NCBI GenBank assembly: GCA_009993585.1
Contig: JAACTG010000114.1
Coordinates: forward strand, 8,372-72,371
Direction: 5' to 3'
Origin: Sphingomonadales bacterium
GTDB lineage: Bacteria; Pseudomonadota; Alphaproteobacteria; Sphingomonadales; Sphingomonadaceae
DNA length: 64,000 nucleotides
In this document: in pieces, positions 2,799 through 64,000 of the stretch
Position numbering within the stretch: the stretch's first letter is position 1
Layout: the number at the start of each line of letters is the position of its first letter
Translations under genes and position numbers: made by a program
Notes under the pieces: model-generated
What the model was told of the DNA's origin: nothing
Databases searched by the model: none
Seen by the model: only the letters and a program-made list of their open reading frames with translations

Positions 2799-3956
2799 AT
2801 GGCCGAAAATACGCTGATCCTCCATCCCGTCCGAACCAAGTCTGAACGGCGCGAGTTCGTCCAGCTGGCCTATCGCCTCAATCGCGGCGATCCCAATTGG
2901 GTTCCGCCGCTGAGGAACGAGATGGCGGGATTGATCGATCCAAGCGAAAATCCCTGGTTCGGCCATGGCGAGGCGCAATTGTTCATCGCCCTGCGCGACG
3001 GCCGCTGCGTCGGCCGCATTTCGGCGCATATCGACGCGCTCGCGCTCGCCCAGCCGCCAGAGAACGGGTTCGGGCCGGGTACCGGCAGCTGGGGCCTGAT
3101 GGAAGCCGAGGACGAGACGACGGCGCACGCGCTGATCGCCCGCGCCGAGGACTGGCTGCGCGACCACGGCACGACGCGGATCGTCGGTCCGCTCAGCATC
3201 TCGGTATGGGACGAACCGGGCCTGCTGACCTTCGGTTTCGATCATCCGCCGACGGTGATGATGGGACATCACCGGCCCGAATATCAGGCCTGGATCGAGG
3301 CGGCTGGCTATCACCCGGTCAAGTTGCTCAAGACCTGGGAGCTCGACATCACCAAGCCGTTCCCGCCGCTGGTCCGGCGGATCATCGCGGCGGGCGAACG
3401 CAACGATCGTATCGCCATCCGCACCGTCGACAAATCGCGGTTCGATGAAGAGGCGGCGCTGATCCTCGGCATCCTCAACGATGCCTGGTCGGACAATTGG
3501 GGTTTCGTGCCGCTGACCGATCGCGAAATCGCCTATGCCGGCAAGAAGCTGAAGGCGATCGTCTATGCCGATCTCGTGCGCATCGCCGAATATGACGGCG
3601 AACCCGTCGCCTTCATGATCACGCTGCCCGATCTCAACGAGAAGCTGATCGACATGGACGGCAGCCTGTTTCCGTTCGGCTGGGCACGGCTGCTGTGGTG
3701 GCTGCGCAAGCCCAGTGTGCGTAACGTGCGCGTGCCGCTGATGGGGGTGGTCAAGCGGCTCCAGGGGTCGCGCATGGCGAGCCAGCTCGCACTGATCCTG
3801 ATCGACCAGATCAAGCAGGCTGCGGTCGCCAGATACGGCGCCTCGCGCGGCGAGATCGGTTGGATCCTCGAGGATAATCAGGGCATGAACGCGATCGCCG
3901 AAACGCTCGAATGCCGGGTCAACAAGATCTACACGCTCTACGAAAAGACGCTTTAG
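2799..3956 (+). CDS. Conserved hypothetical protein, probably a GNAT-fold acyltransferase-like protein
   Basis: 385-aa ORF with genome-typical coding composition. The N-terminal motif PNWVPPLRNE...NPWFGHG...RISAHID recalls an alphaproteobacterial N-acetyltransferase-like family, assigned from memory only. Confidence 0.55.
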   Translation: MAENTLILHPVRTKSERREFVQLAYRLNRGDPNWVPPLRNEMAGLIDPSENPWFGHGEAQLFIALRDGRCVGRISAHIDALALAQPPENGFGPGTGSWGLMEAEDETTAHALIARAEDWLRDHGTTRIVGPLSISVWDEPGLLTFGFDHPPTVMMGHHRPEYQAWIEAAGYHPVKLLKTWELDITKPFPPLVRRIIAAGERNDRIAIRTVDKSRFDEEAALILGILNDAWSDNWGFVPLTDREIAYAGKKLKAIVYADLVRIAEYDGEPVAFMITLPDLNEKLIDMDGSLFPFGWARLLWWLRKPSVRNVRVPLMGVVKRLQGSRMASQLALILIDQIKQAAVARYGASRGEIGWILEDNQGMNAIAETLECRVNKIYTLYEKTL

Positions 3957-4726
3957 CGTAGTTCCACCCAGACCGGCGCATGGTCGCTGGCCTTTTCGCG
4001 CCCGCGATAGGCCTTGTCGACCTGGGCGTCGGTCATGCGGTCGGCGGCCTGCGGCGACAGCAGCATATGGTCGATGCGAAATCCGGCATCGCGCGGCCAG
4101 GCACCCGCCTGGTAATCCCAATAGGTCCAGACGCCGCCCGCGGGGTAGCGCAGCCGCAGCGCGTCGGTCCAGCCGTCGCCGAGCATGCGCGCATAGGCGG
4201 CGCGCGATTGCGGCTGCATCAACGCGTCGTCGGCCATCGCCGCGACGCTGTAGGTGTCGTCGTCATAGGGGATGACGTTGTAATCGCCGATCATCAGCGC
4301 GGGGACTTCCTCGGCCAGGATCTCCCGTCCGCGCTGGCGCAGCCGCTCCATCCAGCGCAGCTTGTAATCGAATTTGGGGCCGGGCTGCGGATTGCCGTTG
4401 GGCAGATAGATCGACGCGACGCGCACGCCCATCACGTCGGCCTCGAGATAGCGGCTGTGGTCGTCTTCGGTCTCGCCCTCCAGCCCGCGCCGGACCTCGA
4501 CCGGCTTGTCGTCGCCGCGCGCGAGGATGGCGACGCCGTTGAAGCCCTTTTGACCGTGCCAGATCGCCTGATAGCCGATGTCGGTGAAGGCGCTCTCTGG
4601 AAAGCCCTCGTCGGCGGTCTTGATCTCCTGCAGGCAGGCGATGTCCGGCCGGGTTTCCTCGAGCCATTCGATCAGACGCGGCAGCCGCGCCTTGATCCCG
4701 TTGATGTTGAAACTGGCGATCCGCAT
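3953..4726 (-). CDS. xthA: Exodeoxyribonuclease III
   Basis: MRIASFNINGIKARL...CLQEIK and the C-terminal SDHAPV motif are typical of the ExoIII/APE1 family. Confidence 0.9.
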   Translation of the reverse strand: MRIASFNINGIKARLPRLIEWLEETRPDIACLQEIKTADEGFPESAFTDIGYQAIWHGQKGFNGVAILARGDDKPVEVRRGLEGETEDDHSRYLEADVMGVRVASIYLPNGNPQPGPKFDYKLRWMERLRQRGREILAEEVPALMIGDYNVIPYDDDTYSVAAMADDALMQPQSRAAYARMLGDGWTDALRLRYPAGGVWTYWDYQAGAWPRDAGFRIDHMLLSPQAADRMTDAQVDKAYRGREKASDHAPVWVELR

Positions 4727-17506: not shown

Positions 17507-18754
17507 TCAGCCGGCGAATAATTCCAGTTGCTCGCTTTTCGGCGCGAGCAGGACGCGCAGATCGGCCCGGTCGGCCAGCAGCGTCGGTCGCCAGTCGGGG
17601 GTGACGATGAACGGTCGGATCTTCGCCACCGACACCGTCAGCCGCGCGACGTCGTCGAGCCGCAGCATGCGCCAGCGGCGCGCCGACACGATGCCCTGTA
17701 CGGCGCGCACGCCGAGGCCGGGCACGCGCAGCAGCATCGATTTCGACGCGCGGTTGATATCGATGGGGAACTGCGCGCGATGCTGCAGTGCCCAAGCGAG
17801 CTTGGGATCGATGTCGAGCGGCAGCATGCCGGTCGCGGTATCGGTCGCGCCGACGATTTCATGCGCGGCAAAGCCATAGAAGCGCATCAGCCAGTCGGAC
17901 TGGTAGAGGCGGTGCTCGCGCATCAGCGGCGGACGTTTGAGCGGCAGCACGCTGCTGGCGTCGGGAATCGGGCTGAACGCGCTGTAATAGACGCGCTTGA
18001 GCGCATGGTCGTCGTAGAGGCCGCGTGCGCGCAGGATGATATCGCCGTCGTTCGCGCTGTCGGCGCCGACGATCATCTGCGTCGATTGCCCGCCCGGCGC
18101 GAAGCGCGGCGCGTGCCGGTATTTCTTTCGCGCATCCTTGGTGTCGATGATATCCGATTTCATCCGCGCCATCGCGCCGTCGATCCGGGCCGCCGATTTT
18201 TCGGGCGCGAGCCGGGCAAGACCACCGACCGTCGGCAGCTCGACGTTGATCGAGACGCGATCGGCATAGAGGCCGGCCTGATGGACCAGCTCGGGATCGG
18301 CGTCGGGGATCGTCTTCAAATGAATATAGCCGCGATAGTCGTGGACCTCGCGCAGCTGCCGCGCGACCTCGACGAGCTGTTCCATCGTGTAATTCGACGA
18401 GCGGATGATGCCCGAGGAGAGGAACAGCCCCTCGATATAATTGCGCTTGTAGAAATCGAGCGTCAGCGCGACGACTTCCTCGACGGTAAAGCGCGCGCGC
18501 CGCACATTCGAAGATTTGCGGTTGATACAGTAATGGCAGTCGAAGACGCAGCTGTTGGTCAGCAGGATTTTGAGCAGGCTGATGCATCGCCCATCGGGCG
18601 CATAGGCGTGGCAGATGCCGCTGCCGGTGACCGAACCGATGCCCTTGCCGCCCTTCGACGTCCGCTTGGTCGAGCCCGAAGAGGCGCACGACGCGTCGTA
18701 TTTTGCCGCATCGGCAAGAATTTCGAGTTTTTGCTGGACGTCGAGCCGGGCCAT
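17507..18754 (-). CDS. Putative DNA modification/repair radical SAM protein
   Basis: Has the CxxxCxxC cluster motif (SCVFDCHYC) and the N-terminus MARLDVQQKLEILADAAKYDASC. The C-terminal helix-hairpin-helix-like region reads LLRVPGLGVRAVQGIV. It is adjacent to a DUF4130-UDG gene (TIGR03916-type as recalled). Confidence 0.85.
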   Translation of the reverse strand: MARLDVQQKLEILADAAKYDASCASSGSTKRTSKGGKGIGSVTGSGICHAYAPDGRCISLLKILLTNSCVFDCHYCINRKSSNVRRARFTVEEVVALTLDFYKRNYIEGLFLSSGIIRSSNYTMEQLVEVARQLREVHDYRGYIHLKTIPDADPELVHQAGLYADRVSINVELPTVGGLARLAPEKSAARIDGAMARMKSDIIDTKDARKKYRHAPRFAPGGQSTQMIVGADSANDGDIILRARGLYDDHALKRVYYSAFSPIPDASSVLPLKRPPLMREHRLYQSDWLMRFYGFAAHEIVGATDTATGMLPLDIDPKLAWALQHRAQFPIDINRASKSMLLRVPGLGVRAVQGIVSARRWRMLRLDDVARLTVSVAKIRPFIVTPDWRPTLLADRADLRVLLAPKSEQLELFAG

Positions 18755-18756
18755 CT

Positions 18757-18771
18757 GTTCTTGCTACGTTC
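18757..18771 (-). promoter_or_regulatory. Perfect GTTC-N7-GTTC direct repeat (alphaproteobacterial LexA/SOS-box type)
   Basis: The plus strand reads GTTCttgctacGTTC, beginning 3 nt upstream of the radical SAM ATG. On the gene strand it overlaps a TAGAAC -10-like hexamer, with TTGGTC 18 nt upstream. Confidence 0.55.
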
Positions 18772-46740: not shown

Positions 46741-47544
46741 ATGTTCACCACCATCCTTACCGCAGCCGCGACTGCCGGAGCAGAAGCTCCGGAGTACGGC
46801 CTCCTTCCCGCACTTGAGGAGGGCGGCCCGGTCGCCTGGACGACGTTCGGCGTCCTCGTCATCATGTTTGCCGGTTCGCTCTACGTGCTGTTCACCAAGC
46901 TGTTCGAACAGAACAAGATCATGCGCCAGGGCAATCAGGTGCAGCAGAATTTCTGGCGTGCGCCCAACCTTCGCGAGGGCGCATCGAAGCTGGAAAAGGA
47001 CAGCGCCTATCGCCAGGTCGTCGACGACGGCCTGCGCGCCGAGCAGGAGCACACCAAGCTGACCGATCCGGTCGAAGCGCATGACTGGATGCACAACAGC
47101 CTCGAACGCTCGCAGAACCTCGTCAATTCGAAACTCAATGGCGGCCTGTCGTTCCTCGCCACCGTCGGCTCGACCGCACCGTTCGTCGGTCTGTTCGGCA
47201 CCGTCGTCGGTATTCTTCGCGCGCTCGTGAAGATCGGTGCCAGCGGCCAGGCGTCGATCGACACCGTTGCCGGTCCCGTCGGCGAAGCGCTGATCATGAC
47301 CGCCGTCGGCCTGATCGTCGCGGTTCCCGCGGTGCTCGCGTTCAACTGGCTGCAGGCGCGCAACAAGAAGATCGCACGCGATTTGTCGACCTTCGCCAAC
47401 GACGTCCAGGGCAGCATCATGTCGGGCGGCGAAGTCCGCCCGGTGGTCGCCACCAAGGGCGCGGCTCCCGCCCGCCCCGCAGCCGCCACCGCCAAGCCGG
47501 TCGGCCAGGCGACTGCCGGCGGTGTCCAGACGAAAAAGGTCTGA
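46741..47544 (+). CDS. exbB: MotA/TolQ/ExbB proton channel protein
   Basis: Contains LSFLATVGSTAPFVGLFGTVVGILRAL...GPVGEALIMTAVGLIVAVPAVLAFNWL. Confidence 0.9.
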   Translation: MFTTILTAAATAGAEAPEYGLLPALEEGGPVAWTTFGVLVIMFAGSLYVLFTKLFEQNKIMRQGNQVQQNFWRAPNLREGASKLEKDSAYRQVVDDGLRAEQEHTKLTDPVEAHDWMHNSLERSQNLVNSKLNGGLSFLATVGSTAPFVGLFGTVVGILRALVKIGASGQASIDTVAGPVGEALIMTAVGLIVAVPAVLAFNWLQARNKKIARDLSTFANDVQGSIMSGGEVRPVVATKGAAPARPAAATAKPVGQATAGGVQTKKV

Positions 47545-61544: not shown

Positions 61545-61979
61545 ATGAGCAAAATCCGATACTGGTTGATGAAGTCCGAACCCGACGCCTATAGCTGGGA
61601 CGACCTGGTCGCCGAGGGCGAAGGCAGGTGGGACGGCGTGCGCAATGCGCAGGCCGCCAATTTCATGCGCGAGATGAGTGTCGGCGATCGCGTCCTGTTC
61701 TACCACAGCATCACCGGCAAGGAAGCGGTCGGGATCATGGAGGTCAGCAAGCCCGCCTATCCCGATCCGACGGCCGAGCAACCCGACAAATGGCCCGACA
61801 AATGGGTCGCCGTCAGCGTCAGGCCGGTGACGAAGCTGAAGCGTCCCGTCACGCTGGCGCAGATGAAGGCCGACGATCGCCTCTCCGAGATGAAGATGTT
61901 GCGCCAGTCGCGGCTGTCGGTCTGTCCGCTGACGACGCGTGAATGGCAGGCGGTCACTGCCATGGCGGAGCAAGGCTGA
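61545..61979 (+). CDS. EVE (PUA-like) domain protein
   Basis: Contains MSKIRYWLMKSEPDAYSWDDL...WDGVRNAQAANFMREMSVGDRVLFYHS, typical of stand-alone EVE proteins. Confidence 0.85.
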   Translation: MSKIRYWLMKSEPDAYSWDDLVAEGEGRWDGVRNAQAANFMREMSVGDRVLFYHSITGKEAVGIMEVSKPAYPDPTAEQPDKWPDKWVAVSVRPVTKLKRPVTLAQMKADDRLSEMKMLRQSRLSVCPLTTREWQAVTAMAEQG

Positions 61980-62017
61980 CCGAAATCCACGCCGAATCGG
62001 TTCGACCGCGCGGGCAT

Positions 62018-62080
62018 TTGCAATTTTGATCCGTTCTGGATATGTTCGTGCAACGGACCATTTGTGTTCCGTTTGGCGTC
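62018..62080 (+). promoter_or_regulatory. Sigma70-like promoter (TTGCAA-N17-TATGTT) overlapped by a perfect GTTC-N7-GTTC box that continues as an 11-bp-phased GTTC-like array
   Basis: The tetramers are GTTC (62033), GTTC (62044), GGAC (62055), GTTC (62066) and CGTC (62077), each separated by exactly 7 nt. The -35 is at 62018-62023 and the -10 at 62041-62046. Confidence 0.5.
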
Positions 62081-62174
62081 GATCGTCGACGCGATTGGGC
62101 CAAAGCGGAACGAGTCGCGATTGTTCGAACGGACGGTATCACCGCAATGGTCGTCCAAAGTCGAGGAGGACGTC

Positions 62175-63200
62175 ATGAGCCCGATGCGAACCGATCAACC
62201 GACGCGGCAATTTCCCGATCTTCACCAGACCACGGTGCTGGCCATTTGCGGCGGCGGATATGACGTCGCGCTGGGCGACGCGACCGGCGGTCATGCCCGC
62301 ATCGTCCGCACCGTGACGATCGACGACGTCGCGCCGCAGGACATGGCGCCACCCGAAACGCGGCTGGTCTGGATCGGTATCGCCGGTCCGCTGGACGACC
62401 AATGGAACGACTGGATCGCCGATCGCATCGCGGCCGATCCCGCCAAGGCCTATATCGTCGATGCGATCGGCGATGCGGCGATCGACAGCGCCTGGGCGTC
62501 GTTCGGGAGCAGTCGCTGCACCGTGCTCGCCGATGCCGACGGCGTCGACCGGCACATCGCGCTGCAATCGGCGATCACCGATCTCGCGCCGGCGGCGTTC
62601 GACAGTCGCGGCGAAAGCCAGCCGAGCGAACTCGACCGGCTGCGCGAGGAGGTGGGGCGCATCGCCCATGCCCTGTCGCGGCTGACCCGATGCGAGGCCG
62701 ACCGGATGCTGGCCCAGCGGCCCGGCGCGGCGGCTCTCGCCGGTCGCGATGCGGCGTCCGGCTGGCCGGTCGATGGCGGCACCCATGGCGTTGCCGACGA
62801 TCGCCACGGCTATGGCTATCAGCCCACGCTCCATCCGCATGGCCAGGGCGGCGTGACCTCGCTCGAGATCCGCAAGATGATCCGCATGCGCCGCTTGCGC
62901 GACAAGCATTTCGATGCTGCGCTGTTCAGCGATCCCGCGTGGGACATGCTGCTCGACCTGATGGCGGCGCGAATCGACCGGCGGCCGGTATCGGTGTCGA
63001 GCCTGTGCATCGCCGCGGCGGTCCCGGCGACGACGGCGCTGCGCTGGATTAAGACGATGACCGAGACGGGCCTGTTCGAACGGCGCAGCGACCCGCATGA
63101 CGGCCGGCGCGTGTTCATCGCGCTGAGCGATCAAGCGGCGAAGGGGCTCGACGCCTATTTCACCGATGTCCGCGCGGTCGGCTCGCTATTGCCGGTGTGA
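62175..63200 (+). CDS. Orphan protein with an unknown N-terminal domain and a C-terminal MarR-like winged-helix domain
   Basis: ATG 62175 follows a strong SD (GAGGAGGA). The C-terminus reads FSDPAWDMLLDLMAARIDRRPVSVSSLCIAAAVPATTALRWIKTMTETGLFERRSDPHDGRRVFIALS. The track start at 62064 (GTG) is less likely. Confidence 0.65.
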   Translation: MSPMRTDQPTRQFPDLHQTTVLAICGGGYDVALGDATGGHARIVRTVTIDDVAPQDMAPPETRLVWIGIAGPLDDQWNDWIADRIAADPAKAYIVDAIGDAAIDSAWASFGSSRCTVLADADGVDRHIALQSAITDLAPAAFDSRGESQPSELDRLREEVGRIAHALSRLTRCEADRMLAQRPGAAALAGRDAASGWPVDGGTHGVADDRHGYGYQPTLHPHGQGGVTSLEIRKMIRMRRLRDKHFDAALFSDPAWDMLLDLMAARIDRRPVSVSSLCIAAAVPATTALRWIKTMTETGLFERRSDPHDGRRVFIALSDQAAKGLDAYFTDVRAVGSLLPV

Positions 63201-63215
63201 TGCCGGCCGGGACGG

Positions 63216-63291
63216 TGGTGGGCGCTGACGGGCTCGAACCGCCGACCCTCTCGGTGTAAACGAGATGCTCTACCAACTGAGCTAAGCGCCC
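63216..63291 (-). tRNA. tRNA-Val (anticodon TAC)
   Basis: The reverse complement is GGGCGCTTAGCTCAGTTGGTAGAGCATCTCGTTTACACCGAGAGGGTCGGCGGTTCGAGCCCGTCAGCGCCCACCA. Anticodon loop TT-TAC-AC. Confidence 0.9.
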
Positions 63292-63339
63292 ATCCCGGCG
63301 GCCCGTGCCCCTAGCGGTCGCCCGCCGGGGGTGCAAGCG

Positions 63340-64000
<661 letters not shown>

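Follow-up and report, generated by a model that had tools for sequence, protein, structure and literature searches.

The DNA between positions 62018 and 62080 of the window (the whole stretch of 64,000 nucleotides analysed here) raises the question of what recognizes a run of similar tetramers that recurs every 11 bp ahead of a regulator gene. The original prediction described the run as a five-unit GTTC-like array lying over a promoter, and proposed either (a) an SOS operator with auxiliary half-sites for cooperative LexA binding, or (b) repeated sites for another direct-repeat-binding factor, such as the winged-helix product of the downstream gene itself. Re-reading of the sequence confirmed its coordinates and letters, with GTTC at 62033, GTTC at 62044, GGAC at 62055, GTTC at 62066 and CGTC at 62077 (exact GTTC therefore only at units 1, 2 and 4), and a spacer of 17 nt from TTGCAA to TATGTT (Table 1). 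The reading that we favour, with a probability of about 72%, is that the element is a composite operator, made up of a LexA box and a gene-specific palindrome, in the promoter of a Sphingomonadales-wide regulator gene. The eye-catching five-unit array is not to be accepted at face value.

Table 1. Positions of the sequence features discussed in the text, numbered from the first letter of the window.
Feature	Positions	Strand	Remarks
Reference LexA box	18757-18771	+	adjoins the start codon of the gene in the next row
TIGR03916 radical-SAM repair gene	17507-18754	minus	reference LexA box lies 2 nt from its start codon
Degenerate palindrome copy GCCGAATCGGT	61991-62001	.	just past the EVE stop codon; GCCAGATCGGC or GCCGGAACGGC in relatives
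Putative -35 hexamer TTGCAA	62018-62023	+	letters as read; promoter predicted only
Palindrome TCCGTTCTGGA, TCC-N5-GGA instance	62030-62040	.	only strict instance in the 64-kb window; predicted operator
LexA-type operator GTTCTGGATATGTTC, units 1 and 2	62033-62047	+	perfect GTTC-N7-GTTC; predicted from sequence
Putative -10 hexamer TATGTT	62041-62046	+	overlapped by the second LexA half-site (predicted)
Unit 3, GGAC	62055-62058	+	half-site not supported; matches GTTC at 2/4; 62044 register 2.7 bits
Unit 4, GTTC	62066-62069	+	semi-conserved TGTTY block in predicted 5' UTR; 62055 register 2.5 bits
Unit 5, CGTC	62077-62080	+	chance; matches GTTC at 2/4; 62066 register -4.4 bits
Degenerate palindrome copy GCCAAAGCGGA	62099-62109	.	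5' UTR; within the relatives' conserved block GGTCCGAAGCGGC
Degenerate palindrome copy ACCGCAATGGT	62141-62151	.	5' UTR; within the relatives' conserved block GCGCCGAAACGGTGGTCCGAAAC
Ribosome-binding site GAGGAGG and ATG start (62175)	62163-62177	+	GGAG-N-ATGGGC conserved in relatives
Regulator gene, 341-aa product	62175-63200	+	Pfam HTH_27, AlphaFold, Foldseek

Units 1 and 2 together form GTTC-N7-GTTC, which is the SOS box defined by experiment in Caulobacter and, more widely, in Alphaproteobacteria (PMC9578287, PMC8565304, PMC3323433). In the window this perfect motif exceeds chance, with six occurrences against 1.8 expected. Only the occurrences at 18757 and 62033 are intergenic; the other four fall in coding sequence, for example in ExbB/ExbD-like ORFs, and the sites at 46906, 47104 and 47952 were set aside because they lie within TonB/ExbB/ExbD-like coding sequence. 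Counts of one-mismatch boxes in the window (59 against 47 expected) were uninformative. Sites were scored with a LexA matrix built from 69 distinct boxes upstream of radical-SAM gene orthologues, which served as a positive control within the lineage, and whose consensus reads TnYGTTC-nnn-ATAT-GTTCY. On this matrix the 62033 box scored 23.1 bits, the second rank among 128,000 window positions; the best score, 25.2 bits, belonged to the box at 18757, the third site, which is the next unrelated one, reached 10.0 bits, and the median of the reference set was 29.8 bits.

The box at 18757 adjoins a radical-SAM repair gene, and in 71 of 76 orthologous metagenomic loci a perfect box was found at the same place, other spacings occurring in 0-2 loci. 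We take the TIGR03916 protein to be the COG4277 partner in the uracil-DNA-glycosylase operon. Such an operon, comprising a uracil-DNA glycosylase and its COG4277 partner, has been reported to be SOS-regulated in Alphaproteobacteria (PMC8565304). That the radical-SAM box adjoins the start codon suggests a leaderless, LexA-occluded transcript in which the internal ATAT serves as the -10 element. The box of this radical-SAM/uracil-DNA-glycosylase cassette shares its motif and its genome with the 62033 box and scores 25.2 against 23.1 bits. In contrast to the 62033 box, it adjoins the start codon, has the opposite orientation and carries no palindrome of the kind described below (0.028/kb in radical-SAM loci).

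Conservation ahead of the regulator gene points in the same direction as the scores. The perfect box was retained in all seven syntenic relatives, at 54-60% protein identity to the window product and with main boxes scoring 20-25 bits, and the block TTGMAA-N6-TCCGTTCYGGATAYGTTC was unchanging across the seven while its flanks diverged. Within a family set of 79 representative loci, in which direct repeats were counted between -300 and +100, the N7 repeat occurred in 17 loci, compared with 0-2 loci for other spacings (N2-N14) and 0-3 for control tetramers. Sites of at least 12 bits were likewise present in 14 of the 79 family upstream regions, as opposed to 6 of 1094 control chunks. Sites of at least 10 bits were absent from 61 of the 79 loci (~77%), and a strong LexA-like site was found in only about 18-23% of the representative loci; either SOS control of this gene family would be patchy, or guessed start codons cause sites to be missed.

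Where LexA-like sites do occur, they are not always placed alike. Relatives with a LexA-like site include Sphingobium (L004, L074), Sphingopyxis (L011) and Sphingomonas xinjiangensis (L077). In the syntenic group and in the Erythrobacteraceae (TTGACA-N12-GTTCN7GTTC) the sites lie over the -10 region; Sphingomonas, Sphingobium and Parasphingopyxis carry them in opposite orientation beside the ribosome-binding site; in Sphingopyxis 4 nt separate the site from a palindrome; and the divergent syntenic locus L088 has its site in yet another place. Such differences in position and orientation among genera indicate that selection for the same regulator has been accompanied by turnover of its sites. 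The match to the extended consensus, the retention in relatives and the enrichment specific to the N7 spacing all support reading (a) as far as an SOS operator over the -10 hexamer is concerned, and the GTTC-N7-GTTC at 62033-62047 can very probably be counted as a genuine LexA operator. When the window and the fetched loci were searched by tblastn with E. coli LexA and RecA as approximate queries, neither gene gave a hit, and literature searches for SOS or LexA in Sphingomonadales found nothing relevant.

The box sits across a predicted -35/-10 pair that is itself conserved, the -35 hexamer being kept as TTGMAA (TTGAAA or TTGCAA) in the seven syntenic relatives and the -10 hexamer as TATGTT or TACGTT. 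To call this a good sigma70-like promoter, as was done originally, overstates the match: the pair agrees with the sigma70 consensus at only 8 of 12 positions, and a promoter scan at a threshold of at least 9/12 found none here. Readings of the sequence by eye as a DnaA box, a CtrA box or an EcfG promoter were rejected, as key positions mismatch.

A second motif overlaps the LexA box, for unit 1 falls inside the palindrome TCCGTTCTGGA, which is invariant in the syntenic relatives. The underlying TCC-N5-GGA motif, with consensus TCCRWWWYGGA, was present in 47 of the 79 family upstream regions. Its strict form occurred at 1.63/kb between -350 and +30, compared with 0.023/kb in the rest of these loci and 0.028/kb in those of the radical-SAM gene, so that it is ~70-fold enriched ahead of the gene family, with 45 of 60 instances between -250 and 0. 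Palindromes are the sites to which MarR proteins bind as dimers, and where a palindrome accompanies a single regulator gene, it is a classic sign of autoregulation; the dimeric MarR-like domain of the product (see below) agrees with this. We therefore read the palindrome as the probable self-operator of the MarR-like product, a binding factor assigned only from the co-occurrence of motif and gene. The palindrome was also considered as a hairpin, but complementarity of its flanks was significant at one position only (p = 0.002) and its inner pairs do not covary, and a protein operator is therefore preferred.

Given this overlap, it could be argued that LexA is uninvolved, the box arising as a by-product of a TCC-N5-GGA palindrome that adjoins a TATGTT -10 hexamer, and the palindrome-binding factor exerting sole control. 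The palindrome is indeed far commoner in the family than the box, most loci lack a LexA-like site (the 61 of 79 noted above), and L002 and L003 carry, as TTTGCA-N7-TCCAAAAYGGATATGTTA, the same promoter and palindrome with TATGTT kept and no LexA box. However, all 8 syntenic members share the core GTTC and the C that follows TATGTT, even though C at the fourth palindrome-core position is rare family-wide (6/64); in Sphingomonas, Sphingobium, Parasphingopyxis and Erythrobacteraceae the N7 repeat recurs away from palindromes, with position and orientation unrelated; and the site fits the extended ATAT-GTTC consensus of independent SOS boxes. We therefore regard this explanation as unlikely, while allowing that the perfect box could in part be a by-product of the TATGTT hexamer beside the palindrome.

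In the composite operator, the reading that we prefer, each motif limits the letters of the other. The rare C at the fourth core position of the palindrome is fixed here because it is part of the GTTC of the LexA box; conversely, G,G at positions 5-6 of the LexA spacer, which few of the reference sites show (6% and 18%), are fixed here because they are part of the GGA of the palindrome. The constraints of LexA and of the palindrome are both visible at once in this predicted site. Elsewhere in the family, four Sphingomonas loci (L021, L044, L064 and L077) share a layout at about -135 to -25 from the start codon, with two TCC-N5-GGA palindromes 51-52 bp apart and a third, degenerate copy CCRTTTCGGAG that is followed by GAAC-N7-GAAC by the ribosome-binding site.

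The gene downstream had been called an orphan, a label that does not hold, since its family has at least 597 loci in Sphingomonadales genomes; literature searches on the protein family, including any SOS role, found nothing relevant. Its start is marked by GAGGAGG 5 nt ahead of the ATG, and homologues begin at the equivalent Met. Indels upstream of 62175 among the relatives are not multiples of three, and the region upstream is therefore taken to be non-coding. The public gene call P0001 (378 aa) begins at GTG 62064, within the regulatory region; given that the ribosome-binding site, the alignment of homologues and the non-triplet indels favour ATG 62175, this start is probably wrong and over-extended.

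AlphaFold models give the product a receiver-like domain at its N-terminus and a MarR-like winged helix at its C-terminus, along with a long helix and a disordered linker. The C-terminal domain matched Pfam HTH_27 (E = 2.7e-7, 31.2 bits against a cut-off of 22.2), with the MarR and MarR_2 models falling below their own cut-offs, and the best 50 Foldseek matches of this domain were all MarR-family structures. The N-terminal domain (residues 1-185, encoded by 62175-62729) is an alpha/beta domain modelled with confidence (pLDDT 82), and weakly resembles receiver domains with a long linker helix, such as those of AmiR, NtrX and KdpE (Foldseek E of 2e-3 or higher). A Pfam search of the N-terminal half returned no family and no receiver domain, and in the alignment strand 3 does not end in a conserved Asp. 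The N-terminal domain may be a pseudo-receiver.

This architecture bears directly on reading (b), according to which the direct repeats would be bound not by LexA but by another factor, such as the downstream product or, as considered here, an OmpR-type response regulator. Direct repeats phased at 11 bp are characteristic of winged-helix response regulators, and the receiver-like matches of the product's N-terminal domain, weak as they are (E = 2e-3 and above), could be taken in its favour. Yet the same motif, with its internal ATAT, precedes 71 of 76 radical-SAM orthologues and is identical to the LexA box of the literature, the N-terminal half gives no receiver match in Pfam, and the DNA-binding domain is MarR-like, not OmpR-like. 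The last point in particular speaks against direct-repeat sites for the winged-helix product, and we consider binding by any such factor in place of LexA very improbable.

Regardless of what binds at units 1 and 2, the remaining units require separate judgement. A functional array of four or five phased tetramers would bind LexA cooperatively, as several dimers or in shifted registers, on a single face of the helix from the promoter spacer to about +25. The exact GTTC units 1, 2 and 4 are in phase, and a box with a third exact phased GTTC arose in 2.3% of simulated 64-kb sequences, a figure that is nominally unusual but comes from a post hoc test. The 11-bp phasing is indel-free in the relatives, and unit 4 is preserved there as GTTC (in four) or GTTT (in three). 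In addition, secondary registers reach 8.1 and 6.0 bits in L001, whose units are GTTC-GTTC-GAAC-GTTC, and one register of L081 reaches 10.1 bits. Phased units occur in other lineages too, as GATC-GTTC-GTTC-ATTC/GTTG in L059 and L080 and as GAAC-GAAC-GGAC in L049 and L074.

On the other side, units 3 and 5 match GTTC at only 2/4 letters, as do 25.6% of all tetramers in the window; unit 3 (GGAC in the window) varies among GAAC, GACC, GGCC and TAAC in the relatives, and unit 5 is not conserved. The shifted registers in the window scored 2.7, 2.5, -4.4 and -30.6 bits, far below both the 23.1 bits of the main box and the reference-set median of 29.8, and the secondary registers of L082, L084, L085 and L087 did not exceed 3.4 bits. 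No excess of phased flanking tetramers was found around 71 reference LexA sites, and the additional units in the family set stem from few related lineages. Because unit 3 is variable, unit 5 unconserved, the shifted registers low and inconsistent, and the reference sites devoid of a phased excess, we find the five-unit array unsupported and its function as a whole decidedly unlikely.

The original claims about the array fare unevenly. Three of its five units are exact GTTC, whereas units 3 and 5 stand at chance level; the phasing persists among relatives insofar as spacing and unit 4 are kept, but unit 3 varies and unit 5 is lost. The auxiliary half-sites suggested for cooperative LexA binding find no backing in unconserved chance matches, in shifted registers of at most 2.7 bits or in reference sites without phased extras. 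Judged by their letters and scores, units 3-5 are not LexA sites, units 3 and 5 being chance matches, although a weak auxiliary LexA contact at unit 4 could occur. Three or four phased GTTC-like tetramers also surround a LexA-like box in L059 (~2640-2685), L080 (~2666-2705, GATC-GTTC-GTTC-GTTG), upstream in L049 and L074, and in L088 (1855-1890), which represent few independent lineages.

Units 3 and 4 might instead act in the RNA, pairing as the two sides of a stem-loop (AACGGA...TCCGTT) at the extreme 5' end of the transcript and being kept for RNA stability or translation, not as DNA sites. RNAalifold does place this helix where the predicted transcript begins; in L001 the inverted repeat is perfect over 7 bp (AACGAAC-N7-GTTCGTT), and in the window, L001, L085 and L087 the stem-loop folds at -5.6 to -8.4 kcal/mol. 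A small 5' hairpin is thus possible in four of seven sequences, but it is missing or weak in L081, L082 and L084, and its energies resemble those of shuffled sequence (Z-scores -2.1 to +0.95). Moreover, there are no compensatory changes, the covariation term is unfavourable (+1.35), and the proposal depends on a transcription start that is itself an inferred position. This explanation too we think improbable, to about the same degree as a LexA-free origin of the box.

Further downstream, the 5' UTR between 62090 and 62160 contains strongly conserved blocks, which in the relatives read GGTCCGAAGCGGC, CTTGTCA and GCGCCGAAACGGTGGTCCGAAAC. RNAalifold pairs CTTGTCA with the start-codon region; all of these pairs are invariant, and covariation therefore argues neither for nor against them. 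A structured 5' UTR was set aside, as the RNAalifold helices come without covariation and single-sequence folds behave like shuffles. An Rfam scan of 61900-63400 found tRNA-Val only and no known RNA element in the leader.

How, then, might a composite operator work? Starting from the identity, conservation and enrichment of the motifs and from the fold of the product, we infer promoter use, LexA binding, product binding and the direction of regulation as follows. A sigma70-type promoter, with its -35 hexamer at 62018 and its -10 hexamer at 62041, would start transcription near 62053. LexA on 62033-62047 would cover the spacer and the -10 hexamer, and would shut the promoter until its RecA-stimulated self-cleavage after DNA damage; once LexA was cleaved, the promoter would fire. 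The dimeric MarR-like product would then provide feedback via the palindrome at 62030-62040 and its copies upstream and in the 5' UTR.

Both halves of such an operator have known counterparts. On the one hand, the core motif and spacing are identical to those of the alphaproteobacterial LexA operator of Rhodobacter sphaeroides, Rhizobium etli, Sinorhizobium meliloti and Caulobacter crescentus; the extended consensus, with ATAT before the second GTTC, is shared as well, and the overlap with the predicted -10 hexamer is what occlusion would call for. In contrast to these operators, the putative operator at 62033 is fused to a second, palindromic one, and the regulator gene differs from known LexA targets in not being described as an SOS gene in the searchable literature. 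On the other hand, MarR-family operators such as those of MarR and MexR are inverted repeats with half-sites ~5 bp apart in the regulator's own promoter, and the palindrome at 62030-62040 likewise lies in the predicted promoter of the regulator gene, over its putative core elements, the DNA-binding domain having a MarR-like fold. It differs from them in the several palindrome copies upstream and in the 5' UTR, and the 341-aa product differs from the MarR family in its extra receiver-like domain, coiled helix and disordered linker.

SOS promoters with more than one box are familiar: E. coli lexA has two, recN three and the colicin genes overlapping ones, and multiple LexA sites tighten repression. 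In those promoters, however, every box is full and scores well, whereas the 62033 site has one scoring register and its extra units are unconserved.

Our verdict is that the regulator gene is a candidate new member of the SOS regulon with a composite operator. A further-reaching proposal, which we hold tentatively and at well below even odds, is that the Sphingomonadales possess, in this receiver-like/MarR-like protein, a second-tier SOS regulator that has gone unrecognised. With its LexA and self operators overlapping, cleavage of LexA would pass control to the protein's own feedback and yield a damage-gated pulse, and the phased GTTC-like units downstream could add weak LexA contacts. If LexA control were confirmed, the Sphingomonadales SOS regulon would gain an order-wide conserved transcription factor of unknown function and, downstream of it, a damage-responsive regulatory layer not seen in the Caulobacter, Rhizobium and Rhodobacter models. 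If the overlap of LexA box and palindrome is what it appears to be, the site would be a compact natural case of two repressors sharing 18 bp.

As to the surroundings of the gene, the order in the closest relatives runs adh_short (a short-chain dehydrogenase), 2OG-Fe(II) oxygenase, fasciclin, EVE, regulator and aconitase. In the window the EVE-domain gene (PF01878, E = 1e-50) occupies 61545-61979 on the same strand directly upstream of the regulator, and is kept in all syntenic relatives. A tRNA-Val(TAC) gene at 63216-63291 on the minus strand begins 16 nt past the regulator stop, in convergent orientation, and lies between the regulator and an aconitase-like ORF that extends on the minus strand from 63340. 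Finally, locus L077 has a LexA-like site of 16.2 bits (4302-4316, minus strand) directly ahead of a gene that encodes an XRE-type HTH protein with Pfam HTH_31 and HTH_3 (3658-4287, minus strand) and neighbours the Sphingomonas xinjiangensis orthologue of the regulator.
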